DNA from: a virus
Virus record (IMG/VR): IMGVR_UViG_3300010970_000218
Span: 1-11,878 of that record
Direction: 5' to 3' (one strand)
Length of the DNA: 11,878 nucleotides
Below the pieces are notes generated by a model that was not told the DNA's origin, made no database searches, and saw only the letters and a list, made by a program, of their open reading frames with translations. Both the position numbers and the translations under genes were made by a program. Below are positions 1-11,878 of the stretch, one piece after another (the first letter of the stretch is position 1; every line of letters starts with the position of its first letter).

Positions 1-55
1 AAATTTTAAATTATTATGGAATCAAAGTTAAGTTAAGTTGAGTTGCTATCCATTC
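1..55. repeat. Terminal direct repeat, copy 1 (identical to 11824..11878). Most simply the overlap left by assembling a circular molecule.
   Basis: The 55 nt 'aaattttaaattattatggaatcaaagttaagttaagttgagttgctatccattc' occur at both contig ends. I compared them base by base. Confidence 0.95.
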
Positions 56-283
56 ATAAGCAGCCTGGTTAATATCTAAAGTTTGTCCCCAAATATCATA
101 TTCAGGATCTGTAATTGTCAAATTTCCTTCTGAAAGTAAATTTCCACTTGTTTCAGAAGTATAAATTGACCAATAAAAGGTAGCACTATCTTGCAAATTA
201 TCATTAATTATATAAGAATTTAGATAATTTCCTGTTTGTACTGATCCATTAACCCATATTTGCACTGGTTGTATCTGTTTCAT
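14..283 (-). CDS. Hypothetical 89-aa protein directly downstream of the fibre gene (possible fibre accessory protein).
   Basis: ATG at 283..281 and TAA at 16..14. The start lies 10 nt after the fibre stop. No motif recognised. Across the junction it is followed 19 nt later by the ATG at 11817. Confidence 0.6.
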   Translation of the reverse strand: MKQIQPVQIWVNGSVQTGNYLNSYIINDNLQDSATFYWSIYTSETSGNLLSEGNLTITDPEYDIWGQTLDINQAAYEWIATQLNLTLIP

Positions 284-293
284 TTATTTGTTT

Positions 294-1778
294 TTATACA
301 TTAAGCAAAGCAATTTTATAATCTGTTCCATCCAGGTTTATAATTAAATGTAATCCAGAAGAACCTCCAGCACTTGCAGAACTTTGACCATCAATGCGCA
401 AAGATCCATTCAAATACAATTTTTTACCTTGATCTGTGGTAGAACCAATTAATACATTTTGTGTATCTGCTTTTACTCTCATAGCCTCAGCAAGTGTTTG
501 TAAAGTTGTACCCGTTGAACCTTTATCACTTGTAGTAATAATAACATCACCACCAGCAGCATTACCAGTACCTTTACCACCAGCAATAGTAACATTTCCT
601 CCAGAAAAATCTGTTCCAAATGCACCACTTCCATTAATTGTATAGGAAGTACCAGCACCAGTTGTTTGAACTAAATCACCACGCAAATTAGTAATACCAG
701 AACCAAAATAAATTTCAGTAATTGGTCTAACTGATGAACCTGAAACAAAAGTTCCATCAACAGAATAGGAAAAATTTCCTATTGCAATAGCATTAACAGA
801 TGAACTTGTAGCAACTGATCTTACACTATTTCCTATTGCAATAGCTTGAAAATTAGAATTTGCATTTCCAAGTGAAACACCATCCAAAGAAATAGCACCA
901 GGACCGACAGCTGTTCCACCAGTTGAAGTAACACTATTACCAATAGAAACACCACCTCCTGTACTTGTTGCACCCCCAACGGCTACACCACCAGCACTTG
1001 AAACACTAAAACCAATGCCAACACCAGTAACACTACCACCAGTTCTACCAACTAAAATTGATCTAAAACCTACACTTTGTCCTTCATTCAATATATGTAT
1101 TGAAATATTTTCATTTGTTCCAGTAGCAAGAATATCACCAGCCAATTTCATAGTTCCAGTAACTTGAAATTTTTGTCCGCTATCTGTTGTTGATCCTAAT
1201 ATTAAATTATTTGCAGTAGATATTCTAAAAACCTCACTTGCATTAATTGTTTGCCACATACCAAACAACATTGCACCTGATGATGCAGTGCTAATGCAAA
1301 ATTGACCAGCAGCAGAACCCTGTATAAAATTATTTGTTGCAGTAGATAATCCAATTACAAACCTTTGCGTTCCACCACTCTGGGCATTATCTAAACGCAA
1401 ACTTGGTGAATTGGCACCAAATATTTGTATTCCATTGTCAGCACTGGATGAACCAACAATAAGTTTACCAGATCCGCTACCTATTGCAGCAGTACCAATG
1501 TAAGTTGTACTGGTAAATGACAAACCAAAACCACCATCTGAAACAGTCCTGTTTCCAGTTAATGTATCATTTGCAGTATATATCGTGTTTCCACCACCTC
1601 CACCAGATCCAGCTATCTGATTCCAAGCAGATCCAGTATCTCTAAAAATTCCATATGGACTATCAGTAGCAATAAATATTCTGCCAACAATACCAGCAGC
1701 TGGTCTGTTTGCAGTCAGATCAGAAAAGAACATTGGAGTTCCCTTTTGATTCAAAATGGAAAGATCCAGTGTTATCAT
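294..1778 (-). CDS. Receptor-binding fibre/spike protein, Gly/Ser/Thr/Asn-rich, with YadA-head-like (Hep_Hag-type) repeats.
   Basis: 494 aa. The N-terminus 'ANRPAAGIVGRIFIATDSPYGIFRDTGSAWNQI' is followed by a 'GSGGGGGN' hinge. Repeated motifs include 'FQAIAIGNSVRS' and 'VNAIAIGNFSYS'. ATG at 1778..1776 overlaps the upstream stop (TAATG). Confidence 0.65.
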   Translation of the reverse strand: MITLDLSILNQKGTPMFFSDLTANRPAAGIVGRIFIATDSPYGIFRDTGSAWNQIAGSGGGGGNTIYTANDTLTGNRTVSDGGFGLSFTSTTYIGTAAIGSGSGKLIVGSSSADNGIQIFGANSPSLRLDNAQSGGTQRFVIGLSTATNNFIQGSAAGQFCISTASSGAMLFGMWQTINASEVFRISTANNLILGSTTDSGQKFQVTGTMKLAGDILATGTNENISIHILNEGQSVGFRSILVGRTGGSVTGVGIGFSVSSAGGVAVGGATSTGGGVSIGNSVTSTGGTAVGPGAISLDGVSLGNANSNFQAIAIGNSVRSVATSSSVNAIAIGNFSYSVDGTFVSGSSVRPITEIYFGSGITNLRGDLVQTTGAGTSYTINGSGAFGTDFSGGNVTIAGGKGTGNAAGGDVIITTSDKGSTGTTLQTLAEAMRVKADTQNVLIGSTTDQGKKLYLNGSLRIDGQSSASAGGSSGLHLIINLDGTDYKIALLNV

Positions 1779-2167
1779 TATATGTAAAGTTTTCTAATTA
1801 CGATTAATTGATTTCCTGTATTAATAGGAGTTGCAAAAGTTAACTGATATTGTGTAGTATCAATTTCACCCCTATTACCTGAAATTCTCAAAGATTGATT
1901 TGGAAGCAATGGCACTTCTGCAATTACTAAATTTGTAGTTCCAGAATTGATAAAAGTAATATCATTACAATCTGATCCTATGTTTGCAGTAGTATAAAAT
2001 ACCTTTGTTTCAACATAATACCTTTGATAAGGTTGCCCTGTAGACTTGGAAAACTTGTTTTCCTGTTCGTACATTGCCCTTTCAGATGCCTTTTTAGTAT
2101 ATGCTAATTTCAACTTGTCGGCTGAAATTTCATCCTCAATATTTATTTGTAAATGTTTAGGCTTCAT
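1778..2167 (-). CDS. Hypothetical beta-rich 129-aa protein (probably virion-associated).
   Basis: The ORF track starts at GTG 2185. The first ATG is at 2167..2165, 11 nt after the upstream stop (2179..2181). The C-terminal half 'ITFINSGTTNLVIAEVPLLPNQSLRISGNRGEIDTTQYQLTF' looks like a small beta-sandwich. Confidence 0.6.
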   Translation of the reverse strand: MKPKHLQINIEDEISADKLKLAYTKKASERAMYEQENKFSKSTGQPYQRYYVETKVFYTTANIGSDCNDITFINSGTTNLVIAEVPLLPNQSLRISGNRGEIDTTQYQLTFATPINTGNQLIVIRKLYI

Positions 2168-2178
2168 TTTAATTTTTT

Positions 2179-2478
2179 TTAGCACATATCAGGAAATTGA
2201 CCAACACCACGAAGGATTGATCCTTTGCTTAAAGCAGCAGCAGTTTGTTTAGCTGCTTTTTTTTGTTTAGCAGTCAAGACCGCTTTTTTTACCACTGGAG
2301 CAACTTTTTTAACTGCCTTGCTAACTTTTTGTAGCAAAGATGGTTTTTCAAATTGTTCAGCAGTTATTTTTTCAGGTGCTGGTACTTCCAGCTTATAAGT
2401 TGCAGTCTTTTTTTTCATTGATAGCAACAAAATTGCACCACCAGCTAACAGGATATAAATTAACCCTTTGTTTTTCAT
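2179..2478 (-). CDS. Small membrane protein with an N-terminal TM helix and a Lys/Ala-rich histone-H1-like tail.
   Basis: TM segment 'GLIYILLAGGAILLLSM', then 'KAVKKVAPVVKKAVLTAKQKKAAKQTAAA'. ATG at 2478..2476 overlaps the upstream stop (ATGA). Confidence 0.65.
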   Translation of the reverse strand: MKNKGLIYILLAGGAILLLSMKKKTATYKLEVPAPEKITAEQFEKPSLLQKVSKAVKKVAPVVKKAVLTAKQKKAAKQTAAALSKGSILRGVGQFPDMC

Positions 2479-2867
2479 TTTCTACTTTTTAAATATGTTG
2501 CTATCAAATAAGCAGCTACACCATACAACAAAATTACTTTGCCATATTTTTCAATGTAGAACGAGACAGAACCTTTTTCTTGTTTTTCTACTTTTTCAAT
2601 TTCCTTTTTTTGTTGCTCAATTGCCTGTTTAACATCTCCTGAAAACTTAAAACTATCAGCAGTATGTAAAACAAAATAAGGCTTATTATTGAAGTCTATA
2701 AACTGCCAATATACTTTACCACCTCTTTGAATATAAGAGTAAACTTGCCCTACTGGTGATCCAGCAGTTATGGTTCCAATTTTTACCAATGATGAATTTA
2801 ACCTTGTCAAATCCTTTTTGGCAAATAGTGTTTTTCCAATAATCTTATCAGCAGTTATTTCTGGCAT
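2475..2867 (-). CDS. C-terminally membrane-anchored 130-aa protein with a possible SH3-like N-terminal domain and a Lys/Glu-rich linker.
   Basis: 'IGTITAGSPVGQVYSYIQRGGKVYWQF' is SH3b-like (weak). Then 'EQQKKEIEKVEKQEK', then C-terminal TM 'VILLYGVAAYLIATYL'. ATG at 2867..2865. Confidence 0.6.
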   Translation of the reverse strand: MPEITADKIIGKTLFAKKDLTRLNSSLVKIGTITAGSPVGQVYSYIQRGGKVYWQFIDFNNKPYFVLHTADSFKFSGDVKQAIEQQKKEIEKVEKQEKGSVSFYIEKYGKVILLYGVAAYLIATYLKSRK

Positions 2868-2868
2868 A

Positions 2869-3609
2869 TTATTTTCTTAACATTTTCAAAAGAAAGTTGA
2901 ATTGCATTTTATCTGTTTCAGCCATTTCACAAAGTAGTTCCAGGTCAGATGCTAACTGATCATCAACTACTTTAAGTCTTTCAATAGCATCGTAAATGCG
3001 TTCTTCATTATCTATTTCGGTTTCATTTGTCATTGTTTCCGTTTTTTCTATTCCAGCAACGTGCGTTACCTTTTGAGTAGGTGCAAATAAACTGGATAGT
3101 TGTGAAAGTATCATTGTCTGTATTTGTGGTGATTTCATTAAACCAGCCAGGAAGTTTTCTTCTTCTGGTTCATCATCATCCTCCTCCTCATCAATTTCTT
3201 GCTGCATTTTTAGTGCTGCTATTTCAGATCTCAAAGCATTAATTTCATTCATCAAATTAGGTTGACCAGCATACCCCATTTGATTCATTGGTTGATATGA
3301 AATAGGATTAAATGCAGTTGGTCTGAAAACACATACAACCATTGGTTCATCCTTTCTTGTATAATAACCGCATTTGGGAACTTTTGGATAAATATTTAAT
3401 GTGTATGTTGCTTCTATTCCTTGAGATTCGGCAGCTCTTATGTTAGCTTCCAATTTTTCCCTGGATATATTTTCATCATTTTCAACATTCAAAAATATAA
3501 ACCTTCCTTTTGAATCAGTAACAGACCAAAAATGAGTTGGAGCATTACGATCATACCAATCCATCACATCAGAAGTTCCAACAATTCCAGCATTATTAGG
3601 ATTCGCCAT
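2869..3609 (-). CDS. Hypothetical 246-aa acidic protein (candidate scaffold/assembly factor).
   Basis: Globular N-terminal ~100 aa, helical 'NEINALRSEIAALKMQQE', acidic run 'IDEEEDDDEPEEE', and a helical acidic C-terminus. Sits just downstream of the capsid candidates. ATG at 3609..3607. Confidence 0.55.
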   Translation of the reverse strand: MANPNNAGIVGTSDVMDWYDRNAPTHFWSVTDSKGRFIFLNVENDENISREKLEANIRAAESQGIEATYTLNIYPKVPKCGYYTRKDEPMVVCVFRPTAFNPISYQPMNQMGYAGQPNLMNEINALRSEIAALKMQQEIDEEEDDDEPEEENFLAGLMKSPQIQTMILSQLSSLFAPTQKVTHVAGIEKTETMTNETEIDNEERIYDAIERLKVVDDQLASDLELLCEMAETDKMQFNFLLKMLRK

Positions 3610-3615
3610 ACAATT

Positions 3616-3640
3616 ATATTAAAGGTGAAGGAAAAGTGAA
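3616..3640 (-). promoter_or_regulatory. Intergenic motif copy A. Minus-sense it reads TTCAC-TTTTCC-TTCAC-CTTTAATAT, ending 6 nt before the ATG of 2869..3609.
   Basis: The plus strand reads 'atattaaaggtgaaggaaaagtgaa'. The first 15 nt are identical to copy B (6236..6250), and the distance to the downstream ATG is the same. Confidence 0.6.
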
Positions 3641-3644
3641 TTTA

Positions 3645-4067
3645 TTAGGCATAATAAACCCCAAAACAAACACTAAAATTACCAGCACTGATAGAACTAT
3701 ATGCAGTAGGAGTTTGGATATAAGACTTGCTCCAGATGATCTGTTGACCAGCAAAAGGTGTAATATCAAAACTAAAAGCTGCAGTTGCAGAATTTGAAAC
3801 AACCCTGTTTAGTTCAAGTACAGGAATACGATTAACAGATTCTTTATCATTGTAGTAAAGAACCAAATAAGTTGTTTTCAAGTTTGCCAGGGAAAGCAAA
3901 GCATTTCCAGACAGAACACTATTTGTAATGGTGTCAGTAGTATAGCAAACCAAATTAAGCAAAGATACAAAGCGAAGTTGTGGCTGGTCAGGGAAATAAA
4001 ACCTGGTTCCAGTAGATGATTGAGGAACAACGCACTCAATAAATTCGTAATTCTGAACTTTGTTCAT
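3645..4067 (-). CDS. Candidate small jelly-roll capsid protein (second capsid protein or vertex/penton protein).
   Basis: 140 aa, beta-strand-patterned, few charges ('TRFYFPDQPQLRFVSLLNLVCYTTD', 'TTYLVLYYNDKESVNRIPVLELNRV'). Immediately downstream of the MCP candidate. ATG at 4067..4065. The fold assignment is inference only. Confidence 0.4.
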   Translation of the reverse strand: MNKVQNYEFIECVVPQSSTGTRFYFPDQPQLRFVSLLNLVCYTTDTITNSVLSGNALLSLANLKTTYLVLYYNDKESVNRIPVLELNRVVSNSATAAFSFDITPFAGQQIIWSKSYIQTPTAYSSISAGNFSVCFGVYYA

Positions 4068-4151
4068 TTTTTTTCTATTTGAATATAAAAAATAGGGCTT
4101 CTATGTTTAACGTGGCATCACCCATTCCATTTCAGAAGTTTACTAATATAA

Positions 4152-4814
4152 TTAGCGAACCGGAGTGATATTCTGCCCGAGGATTCCGCGGAAAATTACC
4201 ACAATTCTTGGGGCAACTGATGCCTGAAGTGTAGAAATTGCACCTGGAAGCTCAAGAGTAACCACGTTATTTTTTGATCCAACCAATACAATGTTTGGCT
4301 CTACTGGATAGTATCCAAATTCAGTTGCATCATTCTGATCAATAGTTGTTGCAGTTGCAGCAGCACCTTGTTGAGTTTGCGGAACGTACAAATGCCTGTA
4401 AAGATCCCAAGCTGGAACGATTTGGCGATTATTTACAGTAACTGACAATTTACCATTGTACAAATTATACAAAGCAGTAGCAGCACCTGAAGTGGTGAAA
4501 GCTGAAGCATTTGGATAAGTGTAAAGAGGAAAAGCAGTAGTAGTGGATGAAGCTGGGATACTTACGAAAACGCCTATGCTCGATACCACGAACGCATCCT
4601 GAAGATTCAAAAGTTGATTCGTTGGATAGTTAGTATTAGCACCGGTGCTATTAACCAGAATGGGAATTTGGTATGAAGTAGTAGAAGTTGACATTGCTAC
4701 TTCAGAACGAAGATAAGACTGGCTGAGAACCGCTTGACCAGCAGAAAAACCAGCATTGTTAACAAGATTTTTGGCATTGTCAAATATTAGCCTTTGCCCG
4801 TGTTGTGTTGCCAT
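4152..4814 (-). CDS. Candidate major capsid protein of single-jelly-roll size (220 aa).
   Basis: No Cys, and rich in Ala/Thr/Ser/Asn/Val with alternating beta patterns ('AFVVSSIGVFVSIP', 'NGKLSVTVNNRQIVPAWDLY', 'NNVVTLELPG', 'RIVVIFRGIL'). It looks locally GC-richer than its neighbours. An 84-nt spacer follows it. No homology search was possible. Confidence 0.45.
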   Translation of the reverse strand: MATQHGQRLIFDNAKNLVNNAGFSAGQAVLSQSYLRSEVAMSTSTTSYQIPILVNSTGANTNYPTNQLLNLQDAFVVSSIGVFVSIPASSTTTAFPLYTYPNASAFTTSGAATALYNLYNGKLSVTVNNRQIVPAWDLYRHLYVPQTQQGAAATATTIDQNDATEFGYYPVEPNIVLVGSKNNVVTLELPGAISTLQASVAPRIVVIFRGILGQNITPVR

Positions 4815-4840
4815 TTTATTTAATTTTTACTTTGTTTAGA

Positions 4841-5269
4841 TTAATAAGAATATTCTTCATCCATTCCAGCAATTACGGAAAGATTGTCCTCACCATAACC
4901 AGCAATAACAGAAAGATCATCTCCAGCCATTACACTAACTGGAATTTCCATTGCTTCATCAATGGCACCCAGAATGTTAGTTGCTTGAAGCAGTCCAAGA
5001 CCACCAGCAGCTACCATACCATCACCGATTGACTTACCAAAAGATCCTTTTACAAATTTAGGAAGGAAAGCACCAATAGCCACAACTGCAGCAGATTTGA
5101 TCTTTGCATCCAAATTAGGAAGAATTTTACCAGATGAAGTCAGAACCCTTGCAGCAGCAGCACCAGCAACAAGACCAGCAGCATCCATAATAAAAGACTT
5201 TCCGATTGCTCCCATTTTGCGAGATTTCCTACGACGGCTGGGGGCAGACCTCTTTTTTCTTTTAGCCAT
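4841..5269 (-). CDS. Protein with an Arg/Lys-rich N-terminal arm, a Gly/Ala-rich hydrophobic core and an acidic repeat tail (putative DNA-binding internal/membrane virion protein).
   Basis: N-terminus 'MAKRKKRSAPSRRRKSRK'. Hydrophobic segments 'AAGLVAGAAAARVL' and 'AAVVAIGAFL'. C-terminal tandem 'DDLSVIAGYGE/DNLSVIAGMDE'. Confidence 0.6.
   Translation of the reverse strand: MAKRKKRSAPSRRRKSRKMGAIGKSFIMDAAGLVAGAAAARVLTSSGKILPNLDAKIKSAAVVAIGAFLPKFVKGSFGKSIGDGMVAAGGLGLLQATNILGAIDEAMEIPVSVMAGDDLSVIAGYGEDNLSVIAGMDEEYSY
4866..4931 (-). repeat. Imperfect 33-nt tandem duplication (2 units) inside CDS 4841..5269, encoding the 11-aa D-x-LSVIAG repeat.
   Basis: Unit 4866..4898 'ccagcaattacggaaagattgtcctc...' against unit 4899..4931 'ccagcaataacagaaagatcatctcc...'. 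Confidence 0.7.
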
Positions 5270-5314
5270 TTTATTTTATTTTTTGTTGTTTTTCGGAAAA
5301 CTATTCCAAGATTT

Positions 5315-6229: not shown

Positions 6230-6235
6230 AATTTA

Positions 6236-6260
6236 ATATTAAAGGTGAAGTGAAAGTGAT
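6236..6260 (-). promoter_or_regulatory. Intergenic motif copy B. Minus-sense it reads ATCAC-TTTCAC-TTCAC-CTTTAATAT, ending 6 nt before the radC-like ATG.
   Basis: The plus strand reads 'atattaaaggtgaagtgaaagtgat'. It shares 'atattaaaggtgaag' and 'aaagtga' with copy A at identical spacing to the ATG. Confidence 0.6.
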
Positions 6261-7462
6261 TATTTTTTGCGACTGATCAAATAAATTACCAATGCACCAC
6301 CAATAACAATGGGCAAATAATTCATTTTTTTAGTTCCGTCAGCATTTACATTTTCTGCCTGGTTAACAATACTTTCAATTTCATCCTGTGAAGCCTGTTC
6401 TATTTGGGCATCTGCTTCCAGTTTCTTTTCAACCACATTTTTAACCTGTTTAGCTAAAACTTGTTTTCCAACTTCGGCAACTTCCTTAACATCAATTCCC
6501 AACTTTGAAAGAAATTCAGCCAATTTTATTAAAATAGGTGCAGCAGTGGCAGCAGCAGCAGCAGTGCCAGTGGCAACTACTCCCACCTGACCTTCAGAAG
6601 CAAATTCAACATCAGATCCAAGCAACCTTTTCTTTTTTGCCCCCTGTTCGGTTTTTCTCAAAAGTTCATTTGGATTTCCGCCCAGGTTTTTCCACCAGTT
6701 TTGTGTTTCATCTGCTTTATTTGTAAAAGCATTTTTCAACTTTGTAGCCAAACCCATAAAGTTAAGACCTACCAGAAGCAAAAATGATCCCCTTGCTGGT
6801 GCCAGGGCAATTTTCAAAACTATTTTCTTTTTTTCTTTAGGCTTGGCAGCTGGTGCAGTAGCTTTAGCAACTGGTGCAGCAGCTTTTTTAGCAGCTTTCT
6901 TTTTAGATGCACCAATACCTGAAACTGAATATAGTGGCATAGTTGGTTCTTTATCTATTTTGTGATAATATGTTTTCCTTTCATTAAATTTTGATAGCAC
7001 AGGATCAATAAAGTATTCATTTCCATCTTGATCCTGGATAACTGCAAAAACGTGGTGCGGAATTTCATCTAAAAGTCTGTAACTGGCAAAACGATAATAA
7101 ATAGTATTATTTATTAAATTTTTGCGTTTTAGACTGTCTAAAATGCCCATAATAAACAAAGCATAATTTTTGCAGTCATTTTTTCCCAAAGATAAAATTG
7201 CACTTGGGGACATAATCCTTTGTGCCTTGTCAGATTCTATTTTGTACCGAACATTTTTCTTGAGAAATTCAAAAAGTTTCTTTGCAGTTTGAATACCATT
7301 ACCTGCATAAAAATCTTGGCTAATTTTATCGTATTCACTGGCATAAAGTTTGTGAGCTGAAAGCATTGCAGAAATAATATCTGGGACCTGTTGATCTCTA
7401 ACAAGAATTTTTGAGTTTCCCCCAAAGGGCTTCAATCTTCCCAAAAGTATATTTTTCTGCAT
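6260..7462 (-). CDS. Transglutaminase-like (Cys-His-Asp) peptidase-fold protein with an AKP-rich linker and two TM segments.
   Basis: 'LGKNDCKNYALFIMGILDS' supplies the Cys, 'IPHHVFAVIQDQDGNEYFIDP' the His and Asp. Linker 'SKKKAAKKAAAPVAKATAPAAKPKEKKK'. TM segments 'FLLLVGLNFMGLA' and C-terminal 'LPIVIGGALVIYLI'. ATG at 7462..7460 overlaps the upstream stop (TAATG). Confidence 0.55.
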   Translation of the reverse strand: MQKNILLGRLKPFGGNSKILVRDQQVPDIISAMLSAHKLYASEYDKISQDFYAGNGIQTAKKLFEFLKKNVRYKIESDKAQRIMSPSAILSLGKNDCKNYALFIMGILDSLKRKNLINNTIYYRFASYRLLDEIPHHVFAVIQDQDGNEYFIDPVLSKFNERKTYYHKIDKEPTMPLYSVSGIGASKKKAAKKAAAPVAKATAPAAKPKEKKKIVLKIALAPARGSFLLLVGLNFMGLATKLKNAFTNKADETQNWWKNLGGNPNELLRKTEQGAKKKRLLGSDVEFASEGQVGVVATGTAAAAATAAPILIKLAEFLSKLGIDVKEVAEVGKQVLAKQVKNVVEKKLEADAQIEQASQDEIESIVNQAENVNADGTKKMNYLPIVIGGALVIYLISRKK

Positions 7463-7878
7463 TAAATTAAAGCTGCTTTATAGTCAAAAGGTACTACAAT
7501 ACCATCAAAATTGCCTGTTCCCTTAATTGTGTATTTTAACCCCTTTTTCAGCCATCCTTTTGAAGTGATTAGCTGGAGTATTCCAATAGTAGGTGAAGCC
7601 TGTATTTTCAATTCAGATTCAGACCTGGCAGCAATTTTTTGTTCACCAAAACTGGAAAAATCAGCAACCAATTTATCTCCCAAGTAAACTTCACCAGTAA
7701 TGGCTGAAACCTTTGCAGTTTGTCCAGTTGGATTTTGAACACCAAAAACCAATTCAAATTTTTTATTGGCAAAACGCAATTTTTTAAATATCAATTTTGT
7801 TTTTGCAGCCAACTGACTTTTGCCTAACAAATACCATCCAGTTAGACCAGCCAAACCAATTAAAATCCAATTTCTCAT
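7462..7878 (-). CDS. N-terminally anchored LEA_2/WHy-like beta-sandwich protein (138 aa).
   Basis: The ORF track starts at TTG 7905, which lies inside the -7 promoter box. The first ATG is at 7878..7876. TM segment 'NWILIGLAGLTGWYLLG'. 'FELVFGVQNPTGQTAKVSAITGEVYLGDKLVADF...LKYTIKGTGNFDGIVVPFDY' follows the LEA_2 pattern (NPN-like strand, Y-x-l-x-G, ..PF). Confidence 0.45.
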   Translation of the reverse strand: MRNWILIGLAGLTGWYLLGKSQLAAKTKLIFKKLRFANKKFELVFGVQNPTGQTAKVSAITGEVYLGDKLVADFSSFGEQKIAARSESELKIQASPTIGILQLITSKGWLKKGLKYTIKGTGNFDGIVVPFDYKAALI

Positions 7879-7902
7879 TTTCAAAATTTTCAAATAATAA
7901 CC

Positions 7903-7934
7903 CAAAATTACTGAAAAATATTCAAAAAACCAAA
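7903..7934 (-). promoter_or_regulatory. Bacteroidota-type promoter for the long structural/lysis operon: -33 TTTG (7934..7931), 20-nt spacer, -7 TAATTTTG (7910..7903).
   Basis: Minus-sense the region reads 'TTTG GTTTTTTGAATATTTTTCAG TAATTTTG'. This is a perfect match to the TAnnTTTG consensus, about 25 nt upstream of ATG 7878. Confidence 0.5.
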
Positions 7935-7936
7935 CA

Positions 7937-7978
7937 TTAGGTCAAAGTAGGTCAGAAAGTGGGTCAGTTTATAGGTAC
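7937..7978 (+). repeat. Phased direct iterons (T)AGGTCA / GGGTCA / TAGGTAC, including two adjacent 12-mers (C/G)AAAGT(A/G)GGTCA.
   Basis: TAGGTCA at 7938..7944 and 7948..7954, TGGGTCA at 7960..7966, TAGGTAC at 7972..7978. Spacing is 10, 12 and 12 nt. The tandem 12-mers are at 7943..7954 and 7955..7966. Confidence 0.7.
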
Positions 7979-8007
7979 ACCCGCCCCCCTGTAAGGGGGG
8001 CGGGTGT
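7977..8007. other. Perfect 13-bp GC-rich stem-loop (ACACCCGCCCCCC / TGTAA / GGGGGGCGGGTGT). Candidate origin, packaging or strand-switch structure.
   Basis: Arms 7977..7989 and 7995..8007 are exact reverse complements with a 5-nt loop. Eleven of the 13 pairs are G:C, in an AT-rich genome. No T-run follows on either strand. Confidence 0.75.
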
Positions 8008-8043
8008 CCTACCCCCTTTCCTGAAACCTTTTGTCCAGGATAA

Positions 8044-8062
8044 AAACTGACCTAAACTGACC
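8044..8062 (+). repeat. Two copies of AAACTGACC at 10-nt period, the reverse complement of GGTCAGTTT at 7962..7970. These are inverted iterons on the far side of the GC hairpin.
   Basis: 'aaactgacc' at 8044..8052 and 8054..8062. 'TGACCTA' at 8048..8054 is the reverse complement of TAGGTCA. Confidence 0.7.
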
Positions 8063-8075
8063 AAAATTCATCTAA

Positions 8076-8096
8076 TTCACTTTCCCTTCACCTTTA
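8076..8096 (+). promoter_or_regulatory. Motif copy C, TTCAC-TTTCCC-TTCAC-CTTTA. It is the only copy oriented on the plus strand.
   Basis: The plus strand reads 'ttcactttcccttcaccttta'. Positions 8078..8091 are the exact reverse complement of 8369..8382. Confidence 0.6.
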
Positions 8097-8102
8097 GCAA
8101 TT

Positions 8103-8127
8103 AAAAAAGGGGCAAATTGCCCCTTTT
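8103..8127 (-). terminator. Rho-independent terminator after CDS 8154..8342 (symmetric, so potentially bidirectional).
   Basis: The plus strand reads 'aaaaaaggggcaaattgcccctttt'. Minus-sense this is GGGGC-AATTT-GCCCC followed by T6, about 30 nt after the stop. Confidence 0.75.
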
Positions 8128-8153
8128 ATGTTTGTTTGCAGTGTTAATGTTTG

Positions 8154-8342
8154 TCAGGATGCCTCTGTGAGGTATTCTCTGGCCTCAAATTCCTTCGTTC
8201 TCTTGTCATATAGGTTCACATACCATCCACCACTTTTAATGGCAAATTTGAGGATATTTTGAACGTTGTTGATATTCCTATATTTTCTTGGCTGAATGCC
8301 AGTTTCAGGTTTAAAAAAAATAATGGCAGTGTAAAGTTTCAT
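8154..8342 (-). CDS. Hypothetical 62-aa basic protein in its own hairpin-to-terminator cassette.
   Basis: ATG at 8342..8340 and TGA at 8156..8154. Sequence 'MKLYTAIIFFKPETGIQPRKYRNINN...'. No motif recognised. Bracketed by the 14-bp inverted repeat 8078..8091 / 8369..8382. Confidence 0.55.
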   Translation of the reverse strand: MKLYTAIIFFKPETGIQPRKYRNINNVQNILKFAIKSGGWYVNLYDKRTKEFEAREYLTEAS

Positions 8343-8368
8343 TTTGTTAGAAATTTTCTATTTTTGTT

Positions 8369-8383
8369 GTGAAGGGAAAGTGG
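8369..8383 (-). promoter_or_regulatory. Motif copy D. Minus-sense it reads CCAC-TTTCCC-TTCAC, 26 nt upstream of ATG 8342.
   Basis: The plus strand reads 'gtgaagggaaagtgg'. This is a 14-nt exact inverted repeat with copy C. Confidence 0.6.
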
Positions 8384-8412
8384 TTTTTCGTTAGGAAGAT
8401 CATTTGTCAAGG

Positions 8413-8434
8413 TAGGATCAGGCGACTGATCCTA
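8413..8434. other. 9-bp hairpin (TAGGATCAG-GCGA-CTGATCCTA) overlapping the stop codon of the ATPase gene.
   Basis: Arms 8413..8421 and 8426..8434. Minus-sense there is no T-run, so it is not a canonical terminator. It may be an attenuator or processing structure between the ATPase gene and the 62-aa gene. Confidence 0.5.
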
Positions 8435-9391
8435 TTTTTGTTTATACAATTCACCAGATTTTACGATTGATCCATCCAGCAACCAGTCTTTAACCAATTT
8501 TTTACAGGTAGTTGATCCCTTGCCAGTAAATTCTTCCAGGTCAGCTAAAAGTTCAGTATATTTTCTGGGCTGGTATAATATCCTGTTTATTAGGCTGGTT
8601 TTTTCCATTCCAAAAATATATGTTCCAGACTTTTCCTGTGTGTTGTTTGCCTGTGTCCAGGATGATCCAGAATAATAAATTGAAATAGGGTTAAATTCAT
8701 CAGATGAACGCAGAAAAGTGGCTGAAAGATCAATAGTTTTATTTTCCTTATTTTTTTCAATCTTTAAAACTGATTGTGCTTTTCTATCCAGGTAGGAACC
8801 AATATGCCCAATACTATTTTGTTCCTTTTTACCCAAATGTAAAACGCAAAGGATAAGTAAATTGTGGATCTTGGTAATTTTCTTCAGCCATTGAATTAAA
8901 TAAAAACTTTGTTCTACTGAATTAAAATCTGAAATAAGATCCAGGATTCCATCCAGCACTAAAATTGAGCAGTCTGGATTCTCTTGCAAATAAATTTCAA
9001 TCATTTGCTGAATCTCATTAGGACTGTCCTCTCTAAATAAAAAACTATCAAAATTATGGGGCAAATAATCAGTTATTATTTGCGTTCTAATCCTATCCAA
9101 TACCCTGTAATAATCAAAATCACTGCTTTCAGTGTCTATGTAACAAATTCGCTTCCTGTCTGGTGGAAAGTTAAGTTTCATTCCAAATATATCCCAGGTA
9201 GTAAATGCGGAAGCAATGGCACTGGTGATAAATGTACTTTTACCCGCTTTAGGTAATCCCTGGAAACAAACAAATGACTGCAAACAACCTATATTTTTAC
9301 CATCAATAGTAAAAATTATATTTTCATCTGGTGGCTGGTAGTTTTGCTTGAATTTCCTGGATAACAATTTTTCGTGTAGATCATTTGTCAT
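8432..9391 (-). CDS. RecA-fold P-loop ATPase, RepA/DnaB-like (AAA_25-type). Putative replicative helicase and the only NTPase in the genome.
   Basis: Walker A 'GLPKAGKST'. 'RICYIDTESS' is a catalytic-Glu strand as in DnaB/RepA. Walker B 'CSILVLDGILDL'. 'LLILCVLHLGKK' is sensor-like. The ORF track starts at TTG 9403, and the first ATG is at 9391..9389 (MTNDLHEK...). Confidence 0.65.
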   Translation of the reverse strand: MTNDLHEKLLSRKFKQNYQPPDENIIFTIDGKNIGCLQSFVCFQGLPKAGKSTFITSAIASAFTTWDIFGMKLNFPPDRKRICYIDTESSDFDYYRVLDRIRTQIITDYLPHNFDSFLFREDSPNEIQQMIEIYLQENPDCSILVLDGILDLISDFNSVEQSFYLIQWLKKITKIHNLLILCVLHLGKKEQNSIGHIGSYLDRKAQSVLKIEKNKENKTIDLSATFLRSSDEFNPISIYYSGSSWTQANNTQEKSGTYIFGMEKTSLINRILYQPRKYTELLADLEEFTGKGSTTCKKLVKDWLLDGSIVKSGELYKQK

Positions 9392-9404
9392 TGGTTTACA
9401 CAAT

Positions 9405-9668
9405 TTAAATTATTATACTACTTTCCTTTTCTCCTTTAGTTTCAATGTATGCACAAAATTCATCAGCTATGTTGTAGGACTGCCTTATTAAGTATGAAAT
9501 ATCCTCATCAGATAGATCCTCAACTTTGTTTTTTCTTAATTGTGCTGAAAGGATATTAAGTGCAGTTATTTCCAGTTTTGACATTCCTGCCATCAGGATC
9601 ACCTGACCAAATTTGTCCTGCATTGGGTGAACTGGCATTGCTGGTAGATCTTTGTTTCTTTGCGACAT
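9405..9668 (-). CDS. Hypothetical 87-aa protein, first gene of the replication-type operon.
   Basis: ATG at 9668..9666, preceded by an A-rich leader. It ends 13 nt before the ATPase ATG. No motif recognised. Confidence 0.6.
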   Translation of the reverse strand: MSQRNKDLPAMPVHPMQDKFGQVILMAGMSKLEITALNILSAQLRKNKVEDLSDEDISYLIRQSYNIADEFCAYIETKGEKESSIII

Positions 9669-9738
9669 TTTTTTATTTTATTTATTGTTGATTTTACAAT
9701 AGTTCTAATTCAATAAGTTTATAACCAATTTTTTTTAC

Positions 9739-9838
9739 ACTTTTCACAATTTGTTTTTTTATTGAATTATTTAAAGTCAAACAATAAGGGCAAAGTGGTT
9801 TCCCGACTTTGCCCCTGTATTGGGTTATTGTGAAAAGT
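9739..9838. repeat. 12-bp perfect inverted repeat ACTTTTCACAAT (9739..9750) / ATTGTGAAAAGT (9827..9838) bracketing terminator 9788..9814.
   Basis: The arms are exact reverse complements. The core CTTTTCAC/GTGAAAAG resembles the TTCAC motif family. Confidence 0.65.
9788..9814 (-). terminator. Rho-independent terminator after CDS 9848..10069.
   Basis: Minus-sense: GGGCAAAGT-CGGGAAACC-ACTTTGCCC, followed by TTATTGTTT. The stem is 9 bp. Confidence 0.7.
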
Positions 9839-9847
9839 TTTGAGCAA

Positions 9848-10069
9848 TTAACGCACTTCATTGTTTCTTTGTGTGTTGCGTTCTTTTAATATTGCTTCAT
9901 ACTTCACAAAATCTTCCATTGCATACTTCATAGAATATTTGCGTAAAAAATAGATCTTTGAAATTCCTTCACTGGGATATTCAGTTGTGGAAAGCAAAAT
10001 AAAGGGTTCATTGGCAGAAATAAAAACTTCAAAAAAATACTTTGTTCCATTAATTGTGTAAGGCTTCAT
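9848..10069 (-). CDS. Hypothetical 73-aa protein.
   Basis: ATG at 10069..10067, 1 nt after the upstream stop. TAA at 9850..9848 is followed by a terminator. No motif recognised. Confidence 0.55.
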   Translation of the reverse strand: MKPYTINGTKYFFEVFISANEPFILLSTTEYPSEGISKIYFLRKYSMKYAMEDFVKYEAILKERNTQRNNEVR

Positions 10070-10070
10070 T

Positions 10071-10319
10071 TTAAAAATTTAATTTAAGTTCTTGAATTTG
10101 GTTTTCATATAGATCAATACTTTCCTGAATCAACATTCTCATTTCATTAACCAATGATATATCAGTATCAATCTGTATTATTTCATACCTATTGCTTCCA
10201 ATATCAAAACTAATTTTAATATTTTGATATTCACCTTGATAACGTTTTAAATTGTTAATCTTGTACTGAATATGCTCAATTTCAAGCATTGTTTCCCTCA
10301 AATTGTTGAATAGTTCCAT
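10071..10319 (-). CDS. Hypothetical 82-aa coiled-coil-like protein (trimmed from the 115-aa ORF-track model).
   Basis: An internal ATG at 10319..10317 (MELFNNLRETMLEIEH...) begins 4 nt after the stop of ORF 10324..10515, which removes a 95-nt overlap. The longer start cannot be excluded. Confidence 0.5.
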   Translation of the reverse strand: MELFNNLRETMLEIEHIQYKINNLKRYQGEYQNIKISFDIGSNRYEIIQIDTDISLVNEMRMLIQESIDLYENQIQELKLNF

Positions 10320-10323
10320 AAAA

Positions 10324-10515
10324 TTAATTGTTTTGCATTTCGGCATATCTACCAAAATGATAGCCAATGTGAAATAAATGTAATTCTGAAGGATAAAAAA
10401 TTTCAATCCTTCCCCCATCCAATTCAGTGAAAGGAATGTTCCGATTCGTTAAAAAGGTCATCAGACCATACAGGTAATTGTGAACGATTATTGACTTTTC
10501 TTTTTTTTCTAACAT
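10324..10515 (-). CDS. Hypothetical 63-aa protein.
   Basis: ATG at 10515..10513 immediately precedes an A8 run. It overlaps the 3' 92 nt of ORF 10424..10633 in another frame. The gene model is uncertain. Confidence 0.4.
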   Translation of the reverse strand: MLEKKEKSIIVHNYLYGLMTFLTNRNIPFTELDGGRIEIFYPSELHLFHIGYHFGRYAEMQNN

Positions 10516-10633
10516 TGCTAAAAAATTTAAGAATTGATAAAATTTGTAAAATGACCAGTAGGCAAATTGCAGTTGGGATGCCTATTAATACCAGATAAAT
10601 AACTGATATTACCCAAGCCAATACCCTGATCAT
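10424..10633 (-). CDS. Hypothetical 69-aa membrane protein (two hydrophobic segments followed by a basic stretch).
   Basis: 'VLAWVISVIYLVLIGIPTAICLLVILQILSIL', then 'RKKRK'. ATG at 10633..10631 overlaps the stop of the 24-codon ORF (ATGA). Confidence 0.5.
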   Translation of the reverse strand: MIRVLAWVISVIYLVLIGIPTAICLLVILQILSILKFFSNVRKKRKVNNRSQLPVWSDDLFNESEHSFH

Positions 10634-10704
10634 AAATTATCAGCAAAGCATAAAAGAATAGCACCCAGAACAATAAGCAGAATTTGAATAGCAGTTTTTT
10701 TCAT
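10630..10704 (-). CDS. 24-codon hydrophobic mini-ORF (MKKTAIQILLIVLGAILLCFADNL), absent from the ORF track.
   Basis: Translated by hand. ATG at 10704..10702. TGA at 10632..10630 overlaps the next ATG by ATGA. It is the first ORF after terminator 10791..10819. Confidence 0.35.
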   Translation of the reverse strand: MKKTAIQILLIVLGAILLCFADNL

Positions 10705-10790
10705 TGTTTTTCGTTTTAAAAATTGTTAATAAGTCATTTGTCAATGCGAACTTAAATAACTTTTATTGAATATTCCAAATTTTTAGGCAT

Positions 10791-10819
10791 AAAAAAAGGG
10801 AGAAATTGAAATTTCCCCC
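10791..10819 (-). terminator. Rho-independent terminator after the lysozyme gene, marking the end of the long operon.
   Basis: Minus-sense: GGGGGAAATT-TC-AATTTCTCCC (10-bp stem with 1 mismatch) followed by T7. It lies 30 nt after the stop at 10849..10851. Confidence 0.7.
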
Positions 10820-10848
10820 TGTAACACCTCTATTTATGAACCTATAAA

Positions 10849-11349
10849 CTATTTTAAAAACAATTCCCGTTCCAATTTTCGCCTGTTTGTTAGTCCCTTA
10901 ACTTCTTTTCCCTGTACTTTGTTCCACCTTAAAAACTGATCTGCTACCAGTTTTTTATCTGCTCCCTGGTTAAGCAACCTTAACAATGTGCTGGAACCAA
11001 ATGCACCAGTTCCAATATTATAAGCCAAACTGGTAATTGCTGCCATTTGATTTGCAGTTACTGGAACCTTAATAAGACCTTTTATTTTCTTTTCACGTTC
11101 TGCAACATCCATTTTTAGCCATCTTTCAGCAGTTGCCAGGTCTATTTTATCCCCTGGCTTAATTGCTTGTCCTGTATCTTTATTTATCGTGGAACCGAAG
11201 CCAATAGTCCAAATATTACCAGTGTCAGGATATGCGGTTAATTCTAACCCTTCAAACTTTTTTATAATATTTAATGCACTCACTTTTTTTCCAAATAAAA
11301 GGATAAATAAAACGGCTAAACCAATATAAATTTTTTTCTTATTGGACAT
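10849..11349 (-). CDS. GH24 (T4/P22/lambda-type) lysozyme endolysin with an N-terminal hydrophobic signal/anchor.
   Basis: 'FEGLELTAYPDTGNIWTIGFG' gives the E-x8-D-x5-T catalytic signature. N-terminus 'KKKIYIGLAVLFILLFGKK'. The ORF track starts at GTG 11352, and the ATG is at 11349..11347. Confidence 0.8.
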   Translation of the reverse strand: MSNKKKIYIGLAVLFILLFGKKVSALNIIKKFEGLELTAYPDTGNIWTIGFGSTINKDTGQAIKPGDKIDLATAERWLKMDVAEREKKIKGLIKVPVTANQMAAITSLAYNIGTGAFGSSTLLRLLNQGADKKLVADQFLRWNKVQGKEVKGLTNRRKLERELFLK

Positions 11350-11500
11350 CACTGTCTTTTGCTAAAAAACCAGTAATAGCAGCAGCAATACCAGCAATAA
11401 TAGTAATCCAGTTTTTCTGTGCAATACCATCCATAATTAAAGATCCACCAGTAATAGATCCAAAAATTGATGTTTTGATGTTCTTAAGTATTCTTTTCAT
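11339..11500 (-). CDS. 53-aa two-segment membrane protein (second holin/antiholin candidate), absent from the ORF track.
   Basis: Translated by hand: MKRILKNIKTSIFGSITGGSLIMDGIAQKNWITIIAGIAAAITGFLAKDSDVQ. ATG at 11500..11498, 1 nt after the holin stop. The 3' end overlaps the lysozyme start by 11 nt. Confidence 0.5.
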   Translation of the reverse strand: MKRILKNIKTSIFGSITGGSLIMDGIAQKNWITIIAGIAAAITGFLAKDSDVQ

Positions 11501-11501
11501 T

Positions 11502-11684
11502 TTACTTTTTTTTAAGTTGTTTAAGTCCTACCAATATTGAGATAGTACAGGAAATTGTACTGGCACCTAAAAAGACAATATTTGCCAATTCAGATATATT
11601 TTGCACTCCCAGTAGGGAAAACAAAATTGTGCTAAATGTAGCAATGTGTGTTGGATCAGTTTGTGTCTGCATTGTCCTGTTCAT
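11502..11684 (-). CDS. Holin candidate (60 aa, two TM segments, basic C-terminus) with a possible dual start.
   Basis: 'IATFSTILFSLLGV' and 'IVFLGASTISCTISILVGL', then 'KQLKKK'. Met1 (11684) and Met5 (11672) are separated by N-R-T. Position is upstream of the endolysin. Confidence 0.55.
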   Translation of the reverse strand: MNRTMQTQTDPTHIATFSTILFSLLGVQNISELANIVFLGASTISCTISILVGLKQLKKK

Positions 11685-11817
11685 ATTTAAACTTTTCAGC
11701 TATTTTGTTAAATGCCTGGATAGCAGTAAAAGATTCATCTATTTTAGAAAAAACACCTTTACTGGTAGCAAGATCCAAAATAGCTTTAATAATTTCAAGT
11801 GCTTGTCTTTCGTTCAT
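11656..11817 (-). CDS. 53-aa helical soluble protein, absent from the ORF track.
   Basis: Translated by hand: MNERQALEIIKAILDLATSKGVFSKIDESFTAIQAFNKIAEKFKYEQDNADTN. ATG at 11817..11815 and TGA at 11658..11656. It overlaps the holin start by 29 nt, or 17 nt if the holin starts at Met5. Confidence 0.45.
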   Translation of the reverse strand: MNERQALEIIKAILDLATSKGVFSKIDESFTAIQAFNKIAEKFKYEQDNADTN

Positions 11818-11823
11818 TTTGTT

Positions 11824-11878
11824 AAATTTTAAATTATTATGGAATCAAAGTTAAGTTAAGTTGAGTTGCTATCCATTC
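11824..11878. repeat. Terminal direct repeat, copy 2 (identical to 1..55). It contains a duplicate of the 3' end of CDS 14..283.
   Basis: Exact 55/55 identity with 1..55, giving a unique unit length of 11,823 bp. Confidence 0.95.

Follow-up and report, generated by a model that had tools for sequence, protein, structure and literature searches.

What kind of virus is represented by a small circle of DNA in which no classical packaging or replication gene could be recognised by eye? This question is raised by the IMG/VR virus record IMGVR_UViG_3300010970_000218, the whole 11,878 nucleotides (nts) of which were analysed here and are referred to as the window. A first-pass annotation, made from the sequence alone, had proposed an undescribed or poorly described lineage of tail-less phages. 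The present analysis agrees with this proposal: no tailed-phage hallmark was detected in the window, its structural proteins have no match in 50,697 phage records, and no description of such a group was found in the literature. With good confidence, the window can be read as the complete genome, in circular form, of an uncultured phage without a tail. Its particle is probably icosahedral and probably contains a membrane, the phage belongs to a large lineage that is frequent in freshwater metagenomes, and a Bacteroidota host is most likely.

Genome layout and the capsid candidate

The two ends of the window are identical over exactly 55 nts, which leaves a unit of 11,823 bp with a GC content of 33.9%. 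Short exact overlaps of this kind are left by k-mer assemblers on circular molecules, and the terminal overlap is the assembly signature of a circular 11,823-bp molecule. Exact end overlaps of their own, 69 to 127 nts long, are present in 14 related IMG/VR contigs with units of 11.7 to 12.9 kb. The related contigs start at differing points and their gene order is a circular permutation of one order. In addition, the spacing between genes g23 and g01, which face each other across the window junction, is uninterrupted and measures 14 to 53 nts in 47 of the 48 relatives holding both genes. Because end overlap, permuted relatives and bridged junction agree, the circle proposed in the first-pass annotation (or a circularly permuted equivalent) is well supported at the sequence level. 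Some related assemblies are longer than one unit: a 16.6-kb contig (L033) contains the same micro-gene twice, 11,903 nts apart, and three contigs of 24.5 to 24.8 kb are about two units long. These over-length assemblies are consistent with concatemers, or with an assembler that ran past its starting point on a circle.

Every credible gene is encoded by the minus strand (Table 1). The earlier count of 24 genes on one strand stands after two corrections, with a conserved 24-aa (amino acid) micro-gene as a 25th. The first correction is that orf63 is a real gene; it overlaps g05 by 92 nts in a different frame, and both frames are open in relatives. The second concerns g06, annotated as a 115-aa open reading frame (ORF), of which the C-terminal part is conserved; its start was moved to position 10319 because the upstream extension carries stops in all 32 relatives. 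The stop codon of the micro-gene overlaps the start codon of g05 (ATGA). No tRNA gene and no Rfam family was found in the window.

Terminase, portal, HK97 capsid and tape measure proteins, as well as polymerase, integrase, FtsK/HerA-type ATPase and HUH Rep, were searched for with Pfam and PHROGs in all proteins and with NCBIfam in ten of them, and none was found. The list of functions not seen by eye is thus confirmed at the profile level. The broader claim that the genome lacks every hallmark holds for those named above and has to be restricted to them, since a single jelly-roll protein of capsid type, a helicase and an origin-like region with iterons and a hairpin are present.

The capsid candidate is g16, a protein of 220 aa. 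An AlphaFold2 model built from an alignment of 90 sequences (28 to 69% identity) was obtained with a pLDDT of 92.4 and a pTM of 0.89, and consists of an N-terminal helix followed by eight strands that form a single jelly roll. A Foldseek search of the PDB with this model returned as top match a capsid protein of Sulfolobus polyhedral virus 1 (SPV1; E 1e-3, prob 0.99). The matches at lower ranks include circovirus capsids, VP17 of P23-77 (ranks 13 and 27; a weak match, E 2e-2) and double-barrel capsid proteins from iridovirus and PBCV-1. In the BFVD database, the best match was I1ZBH9 (211 aa, E 8e-6, TM 0.5), with capsids of circular Rep-encoding single-stranded DNA (CRESS) viruses and SPV1 VP4 (rank 18) further down. 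An identification of I1ZBH9 with a structural protein of SSIP-1 (gp45 or gp46, 210 and 211 aa) was considered and not retained; hhalign comparisons of g16 with both were negative. No family match was found for g16, PHROGs included, and its profile matched none of the PDB sequences. Since the class of the fold matches is consistent, though the matches are individually weak, g16 is likely to be the major capsid protein (MCP), as far as can be judged from a predicted structure.

Homologues of g16 are numerous. At E < 1e-3, at least 1,200 clusters at 90% identity were counted among the matches listed, and an exhaustive scan gave 799 clusters at 50% identity, mostly on contigs of 10 to 14 kb. The lineage is therefore abundant in metagenomes, not rare, and is already present in IMG/VR. 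The gene always found directly after g16 is g17, whose product is better conserved than any other protein of the group (median 95%). It is present in all distant relatives and may encode a penton or second capsid protein.

The fold matches raise the question of whether g16 and g17 are the two capsid proteins of a vertical single jelly-roll virus, either a member of the Singelaviria (P23-77, SH1-like) or a bacterial counterpart of the Portogloboviridae (SPV1). The ranks of SPV1 and P23-77 proteins in both structure databases speak for such a relationship, and adjacent small beta-rich genes echo the pair of small and large capsid genes in viruses of the Singelaviria and SPV1 type. However, the TM-scores are low (0.18 to 0.41), hhalign revealed no profile similarity between g17 and g16, the structural model of g17 is unusable, and the orientation of the barrel in the capsid is not readable from a monomer model. 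Furthermore, the gene for a packaging ATPase of the FtsK/HerA type, part of the core set of the Singelaviria, was not found, and the genome of the window is 1.5 to 2.5 times smaller. Such a relationship is considered unlikely.

Replication functions and the wider family

A search of IMG/VR with g16 returned 68 related contigs. Iterative searches with hidden Markov models (HMMs), covering all fetched loci, showed that distant homologues of g16 (32 to 45% identity) share seven late genes in one order, g12-g13-g15-g16-g17-g18-g21, after which comes a fibre or spike gene. Four of the distant contigs are closed circles of 10.6 to 11.6 kb. At the position of the helicase gene of the window, a 7.4-kb contig (L076, 2295-3275) encodes a Rep_1 protein (E 2e-11) with an HPHYH motif, while three others (L075, L077 and L078) encode a Rep_trans/Phage_CRI-like initiator matching phrog_20614. 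A further contig, L079, is also listed among the relatives with a rolling-circle initiator at this position. When compared with the phage collection, the Rep of L078 matched one group only, the single-stranded DNA (ssDNA) Cellulophaga phages (21% identity, E 3e-10), the matching protein being the replication initiation factor of phi18:4, phi12:2, phi12a:1, phi48:1 and Omtje. Because relatives bear initiators where the window has a helicase, the replication module is swapped within the family, one structural module being associated either with rolling-circle initiators or with a helicase. L078 and L079 are complete circles, and no ATPase-family Pfam match was found among their called genes, suggesting that the capsid module works without a packaging ATPase. 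One helicase-bearing relative (L074; features at 6246-6962 and 8363-10244) encodes a caspase-like Peptidase_C14 protein (E 2e-16) and has its early genes on the opposite strand; hence not every member of the family has all its genes on one strand.

In the window, the helicase is g10, a RepA/DnaB-type protein with a RecA fold. It was first noticed as a RepA-like ATPase, which is borne out by a Pfam AAA_25 match of 30.4 bits against a cut-off of 27. The protein has a Walker A motif (GLPKAGKST), a Walker B motif (ILVLDGILDL) and an HL..K...GH motif, all invariant across homologues of 28 to 65% identity, and is extended at its C-terminus by a further region of about 90 aa. It is the only P-loop protein found in the window and is encoded in the early operon. 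It is 30% identical to the primase/helicase of Flavobacterium podophages, and tblastn also matched proteins of Olleya and Flavobacterium phages. Other relatives were found in plasmid records of Bacteroides, Phocaeicola, Parabacteroides and Prevotella, where they are named "AAA family ATPase" or "bifunctional primase/helicase". All detectable relatives of g10 are in Bacteroidota elements. Human-gut contigs deposited as "Bacteriophage sp." were also considered as relatives of the window and were rejected, as they share the helicase only. One of them (L001, MT836017; features at 7237-9249 and 12608-13768) has a g10-type helicase beside a separate primase, encodes an integrase, excisionase-like genes, ParA/ParB and a DarB-like protein, and lacks homologues of the structural module; it has the appearance of a fragment of an integrative element from Bacteroidales.

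No other part of the genome is as structured as the 250-nt gap that separates the two operons, which contains, in minus-strand order, a terminator, an inverted copy of a 23-nt motif, two copies of GGTCAGTTT (8044-8062), a hairpin that is GC-rich in a genome of 34% GC (7972-8011), and inverted repeats at 7940-7970 (AAACTGACC, TTTCTGACC and TTTGACC). When positions 7900-8140 were folded as ssDNA, a z-score of -7.8 relative to shuffled controls was obtained. Among 17 relatives, the outer stem of the hairpin is constant and the inner stem is variable yet always paired; nine stem pairs have changes on both sides with pairing kept. In helicase-bearing relatives, the hairpin is flanked by GGTCAG/CTGACC repeats; in the four Rep-encoding relatives that were checked, the corresponding intergenic region lacks them. 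This distribution of the iterons fits a cognate origin, and the gap is best described as an origin-like region with inverted GGTCAG iterons around a conserved hairpin. The GC skew of the window is negative almost throughout, is confounded by the one-strand coding and is uninformative on the origin.

Origins of IncQ plasmids combine iterons, hairpin priming sites and a RepA helicase, and their strand-displacement mode of replication would yield single strands with no need of a nickase. The window resembles the IncQ plasmid RSF1010 in its helicase, which belongs to the RepA-type hexameric family (AAA_25), and in its short iterons beside a stable hairpin. The resemblance is one of architecture alone, and it differs in that a RepB-type primase and a RepC-type initiator were not recognised in the window.

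The distribution of the helicase family, otherwise found in Bacteroidales plasmids and integrative elements, could also suggest that the window is not an autonomous virus. A plasmid-like element or satellite could combine a lysis cassette with helper particles, in which case the jelly-roll protein would not be its capsid, and the lack of a packaging enzyme and the many uncharacterised proteins would suit such an element. Nevertheless, the size of the genome is tightly held (11.7 to 12.9 kb in the 14 closed relatives), the order of the seven-gene late module is kept, the fibre or spike gene has tailspike-like domains in relatives, and a holin-endolysin cassette is present. None of the family scans detected a partition, mobilisation, integrase or toxin-antitoxin gene, g16 was unmatched in 72,556 plasmid records, and no integrated copy was found in a scan of one genome per species from 185,579 species. 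A plasmid or satellite nature of the element is thus very improbable, and its interpretation as an autonomous phage is retained below.

Relation to known tail-less viruses and host

Comparison of the window with known phages was largely negative. Megablast of the whole genome against the 50,697 phage records gave no match, and neither did tblastn with g16 alone or with 20 proteins as one joined query, a format that may lower sensitivity. None of the structural proteins matched a PHROGs family. Features of the Caudoviricetes (HK97-fold MCP, portal, large terminase) were not found, and the capsid candidate is a jelly roll. For the Microviridae, no Pfam or PHROGs match to a microvirus capsid or Rep was obtained, and the genome of 11.8 kb compares with 4 to 7 kb in that family. 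In the literature, no described group with this combination of features was found, which is absence of evidence from an incomplete library. The "Charybdis" elements were considered and rejected as a different group, which is archaeal and 4.6 kb in size.

The FLiP group is closest in lifestyle and architecture. Its members have Bacteroidota hosts, a circular genome of up to 17 kb with genes on one strand, and no packaging ATPase (PMC5894146), an absence that Yutin et al. discuss for the FLiP and Odin groups (PMC5894146). Phage phi48:2, which the first-pass annotation had suggested as the first comparison, is placed in the FLiP group, which is characterised by an MCP of the double jelly-roll type and by an M13-like Rep (PMC5894146, PMC13269007). 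The accession deduced for phi48:2 (KC821605) is not among the phage records searched, and tblastn with the FLiP MCP did not retrieve this phage. FLiP itself (Finnlakeviridae, 9.2 kb) shares with the window the host phylum, a small one-strand circle, a virion-associated cell-wall enzyme and the lack of a packaging ATPase; it is also tail-less with an internal membrane, as shown for FLiP and predicted from genes for the window. In contrast, the capsid candidate of the window is a 220-aa single jelly roll, versus a 311-aa double jelly roll in FLiP, and a helicase and iteron origin stand in place of the HUH Rep.

These similarities raise the possibility that the window belongs to the FLiP group as a divergent member. 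It would then be an ssDNA phage with a membrane, and its double jelly-roll MCP would have diverged beyond recognition. The shared host phylum, circularity, size range, strand layout and missing ATPase would all fit, as would the Rep_trans/Phage_CRI-type initiators found in the relatives L075, L077 and L078 and not in the window, since initiators of this type define the FLiP group. On the other hand, the model of g16 has one eight-strand jelly roll and not two, no chain described as FLiP or PM2 is among its top 50 PDB fold matches, and it has no PHROGs match. BLAST, phmmer, family HMMs and hhalign against every FLiP protein were all negative, the g16 family reaching a prob of 0.2 against the FLiP MCP. 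Because the double jelly-roll MCP and the M13-like Rep are both absent here, membership in the FLiP group fails and this reading appears improbable.

The candidate "Obscuriviridae", which are ssDNA Cellulophaga phages with Flavobacteriia hosts (phi18:4, phi12:2, phi12a:1, phi48:1 and Omtje; 6.5 kb), also have a one-strand circle and no packaging ATPase. Their structural gene of about 240 aa followed by a gene of about 140 aa, together with a virion glucosaminidase, echoes the layout of the window family. They differ in a genome of about half the size, in the lack of structural profile similarity and in their Rep, which the window lacks; family HMMs gave nothing significant against the proteins of phi18:4 and Omtje. 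The viruses providing the best fold matches of g16, SPV1 and the Singelaviria P23-77 and SH1, are similar in their tail-less membrane virions and small jelly-roll capsid proteins. Their hosts, however, are archaea or Thermus, and their double-stranded DNA (dsDNA) genomes measure 17 to 31 kb; the fold matches are weak, not exceeding a TM of 0.41, and are accompanied by no similarity in sequence. In addition, the Singelaviria have two capsid proteins and a dedicated packaging ATPase, and such an enzyme of the A32/FtsK-HerA type was not found in the window.

PM2 (Corticoviridae), with a circular dsDNA genome of 10 kb, resembles the window in size and circularity, and in a tail-less membrane virion if the prediction made here is correct. 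The double jelly-roll MCP, P9 packaging ATPase and HUH Rep of PM2 were not found in the window, and the operons of PM2, unlike those of the window, run in both directions. The earlier statement that this gene set fits neither the PM2 nor the FLiP template is therefore upheld, with no sequence or profile similarity to FLiP and no tblastn match in the phage records. Altogether, the window appears to represent a small tail-less jelly-roll phage of Bacteroidota in an apparently undescribed family-level lineage without isolate.

The host is most likely a freshwater member of the Bacteroidota. The scan of one genome per species returned four small related contigs in metagenome-assembled genomes (MAGs), two of which are binned in MAGs of "uncultured Bacteroidetes". 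The Bacteroidota are favoured because the helicase relatives, these two MAG bins, the composition and a promoter match point to them, and freshwater because the MAG isolate names, as read, suggest lake projects.

Several points weigh against the interpretation as a tail-less Bacteroidota phage. What is said here of the virion, the host and the type of nucleic acid is predicted from sequence, and the membrane content is deduced from a crude hydropathy scan. The capsid assignment of g16 depends on one predicted fold with weak Foldseek matches (best PDB E 1e-3, TM 0.35 to 0.41), and the jelly roll is a fold also seen in penton proteins and in proteins that bind receptors. The AlphaFold2 model of g17, made from a shallow alignment of close homologues, reached a pLDDT of 45. 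For replication, the AAA_25 score of g10 is just above threshold, neither its single sequence nor its profile matched PDB sequences, and the family scans recognised no initiator or primase among the proteins of the window. The conserved hairpin could act in a transcript or in packaging instead of replication, and the promoter match is no commoner than chance predicts. Concerning the host, small contigs of high copy number cannot be binned into MAGs reliably, a relative (RGZB01000169) was assigned to a MAG labelled "Proteobacteria", and the GC content of the family ranges from 29 to 54%. This spread and the "Proteobacteria" bin call for caution in extending the host assignment to the whole family.

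Gene complement, expression and proposed biology

Two intrinsic terminators divide the circle into two co-directional operons. The early operon runs from 10703 to 8154 and consists of the micro-gene, which is its first gene, g05, orf63, g06 to g09, the helicase gene g10 and g11, that is, eight small proteins and the RepA/DnaB-type helicase. Among these, g08 has weak treble-clef and GATA zinc-finger matches and a match to PHROG 15404 (E 4e-5). On the non-coding strand, a 13-bp stem-loop followed by a T-run (8409-8438, plus strand) is located between g10 and g11. The late operon starts at about 7878, crosses the assembly junction and ends at 10849; it contains the structural genes, the fibre gene, g01 to g03 and the lysozyme gene. 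Directly upstream of it is a match to the Bacteroidetes-type promoter. When both strands of the window were scanned with the consensus TTTG-N(18-22)-TAnnTTTG, this was the sole match, 1.22 being expected by chance; its position alone is suggestive. A repeat search revealed three copies of a 23-nt motif (AATTCACTTTyCyTTCACCTTTA), and its core TTCACCTTTA is present in one to three copies in 13 of the 14 relatives checked. This motif may be a late regulatory site.

Table 1. Features of the window, in order of position, with the evidence on which each row is based
Feature	Position	Strand	Evidence or remark
Terminal overlap	1-55		identical to 11824-11878
g23, 89-aa acidic protein	14-283	-	downstream of fibre; 39/39 long relatives, median identity 62%
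g22, 494-aa Gly/Ser/Thr-rich fibre or spike, probable	294-1778	-	conserved N-terminus, variable remainder
g21, 135-aa conserved protein	1778-2185	-	just upstream of fibre; in structural module
g20, 99-aa basic protein with N-terminal hydrophobic segment	2179-2478	-	hydropathy; 34/39 relatives
g19, 130-aa protein with C-terminal hydrophobic anchor	2475-2867	-	conserved in 37/39 relatives
g18, 246-aa protein	2869-3609	-	beta-rich N-terminal half; acidic, helical-looking C-terminal half (43 D+E)
23-nt motif, copy A, AATTCACTTTTCCTTCACCTTTA	3620-3642	-	11 nt upstream of g18 start codon
g17, 140-aa all-beta protein	3645-4067	-	always directly after g16
g16, 220-aa candidate major capsid protein	4152-4814	-	predicted single jelly roll
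g15, 142-aa protein	4841-5269	-	Arg/Lys-rich N-terminus MAKRKKRSAPSRRRKSRK, then Gly/Ala-rich hydrophobic stretches
g14, Lys-rich N-terminal region and RadC-like JAB/MPN domain	5315-6229	-	Pfam RadC E 3e-35; PHROG 10276; NCBIfam RadC
23-nt motif, copy B	6240-6259	-	11 nt upstream of g14 start codon
g13, 400-aa protein with transglutaminase-like (papain-fold) N-terminal domain	6260-7462	-	Pfam DUF553 E 4e-5, above cut-off
g12, LEA_2-like beta-sandwich protein with N-terminal hydrophobic segment	7462-7905	-	first late-operon gene
Bacteroidetes-type promoter match TTTG-N20-TAATTTTG	7903-7934	-	directly upstream of late operon
Origin-like region	7940-8062		repeats and hairpin in 250-nt gap between operons
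23-nt motif, copy C	8074-8096	+	inverted relative to A and B; between early terminator and iterons
Early-operon terminator AAAAGGGGCAATTTGCCCCTTTTTT	8103-8127	-	27 nt past g11 stop
g11, 62-aa basic protein, last early gene	8154-8342	-	conserved in 36/39 relatives and in L086
g10, RepA/DnaB-type (RecA-fold) replicative helicase	8432-9403	-	Pfam AAA_25; PHROG 239 primase/helicase
g09, 87-aa early protein	9405-9668	-	ORF, relatives
g08, 55-aa CxxC...CxxC zinc-ribbon protein	9694-9861	-	early operon
g07, 73-aa early protein	9848-10069	-	ORF, relatives
g06, 82-aa helical early protein	10071-10319	-	start revised to 10319
orf63, 63-aa early protein	10324-10515	-	31 near-full matches, median identity 86%, one with a stop
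g05, 69-aa early protein with one strongly hydrophobic segment	10424-10633	-	no stops in 32 relatives; hydropathy
24-aa hydrophobic micro-protein MKKTAIQILLIVLGAILLCFADNL	10629-10703	-	amino-acid conservation in >40 related contigs
Late-operon terminator	10797-10820	-	just past endolysin gene
g04, GH24 phage lysozyme (endolysin)	10849-11352	-	Pfam Phage_lysozyme E 5e-41; PHROG 7 endolysin E 4e-52
g03, 53-aa Gly-rich hydrophobic protein, holin-like candidate	11339-11500	-	sequence and position; 39/39 relatives
g02, 60-aa membrane protein, holin-like candidate	11502-11684	-	hydropathy; 37/39 relatives
g01, 53-aa helical protein, first after junction	11656-11817	-	39/39 relatives; beside g23 in 47/48

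Several of the remaining late genes encode candidate virion proteins, and no match was obtained in the family scans for g15, g18, g20, g21, g22 and g23. The true start of g12 is probably the ATG at 7878; its LEA_2 match (E 2e-4) is below the Pfam cut-off, and LEA_2 is also matched in several relatives. In g13, the N-terminal domain is followed by an Ala/Lys-rich linker and a C-terminal hydrophobic anchor. This protein is kept throughout the wider family, where homologues match Transglut_core, suggesting a virion-associated cell-wall or entry enzyme. The RadC-like domain of g14 contains an intact JAMM-type motif, H-x-H...S-x-x-D (HNHPSGNLRPSEAD), and is preceded by about 150 histone-like residues rich in Lys, Ala and Pro, in a gene located inside the late structural operon. 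In distant relatives, the RadC domain was not found and the N-terminal part alone was found, in L086. Because its RadC domain is missing from distant relatives, g14 is regarded as an accessory gene of a sub-lineage, whose product is possibly packaged or active against host defences. The product of g15, a gene located immediately upstream of g16, is kept in all distant relatives and may be a genome-binding, membrane-associated core protein.

Downstream of the capsid genes, the features of g18 would suit a scaffolding or assembly protein. Both g19, which had sub-threshold Pfam matches alone and no PHROGs or NCBIfam match, and g20 are candidate virion membrane proteins. The many small transmembrane proteins reported earlier are recovered as hydrophobic segments in several proteins in the crude hydropathy scan. 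From its position, g21 may be a vertex or fibre-adaptor protein. The fibre assignment of g22 was supported in part: the protein itself matches no family, and the gene at its position in L077 and L078 encodes K1-lyase_C or tailspike-like domains. In the distant relatives L086 and L088, g22 is conserved at residues ~2-63 only, and this conserved start with a variable remainder is the usual pattern of an anchor domain followed by an exchangeable receptor-binding part. Hence g22 is a probable receptor-binding protein, and g23 is possibly fibre-associated. The lysis cassette recognised by eye is confirmed by the strong lysozyme match of g04, which has an N-terminal hydrophobic signal or anchor segment according to hydropathy, and by the small hydrophobic proteins encoded ahead of the lysozyme gene.

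From these features, an infection cycle can be proposed. Replication would start in the gap between the operons, where the inverted GGTCAG iterons flanking the GC hairpin would be bound by an initiator, either the extra C-terminal region of the helicase or a small early protein. The helicase would then unwind the DNA for synthesis by host primase and polymerase, a layout closer to the strand-displacement origins of the IncQ type than to a rolling-circle nick site. The capsid would be built from g16, with g17 as penton or second capsid protein and the acidic g18 as assembly factor, while g12, g13, g15, g19 and g20 would be membrane-anchored virion proteins. The Arg-rich N-terminus of g15 could condense the genome and the transglutaminase-like g13 could help to breach the cell wall, g21 and g22 forming a vertex fibre. 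Since no packaging ATPase was found, encapsidation would proceed as in FLiP and microviruses, with no motor powered by ATP, and release would rely on the holin-like proteins and the signal-anchored GH24 lysozyme. Whether the virion contains ssDNA or dsDNA is about evenly balanced: the one-strand layout, the Arg-rich g15 and the Rep-bearing relatives favour ssDNA, whereas the replicative helicase and the iteron origin favour dsDNA.

Few isolates of tail-less Bacteroidota phages are known, namely FLiP, phiCjT23, phi48:2 and phi18:4. The lineage described here marks a gap in phage diversity, with hundreds of diverged capsid clusters, many closed genomes and no structural match to a sequenced phage. 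Its capsid candidate, seven-gene module and origin provide markers for finding, classifying and eventually isolating the group. The most interesting aspect is the coupling of an ATPase-free capsid module either to rolling-circle initiators or to a replicative helicase, which bears on the exchange of modules between ssDNA and dsDNA viruses, a question first raised by FLiP. The ATPase-free complete circles would imply motor-free encapsidation at 10 to 12 kb. It is possible, though on balance doubtful, that the lineage forms an undescribed group at family level or above, defined by a small capsid protein that has a single jelly roll and shares no sequence relationship with the capsids of microviruses, FLiP and Singelaviria, an internal membrane, the absence of a packaging ATPase, and a capsid module alternating between two Rep types and a helicase with an iteron origin. 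If this were true, the group would straddle the divide between ssDNA and dsDNA viruses and would provide a natural test of whether the capsid module dictates the nucleic acid that is packaged.

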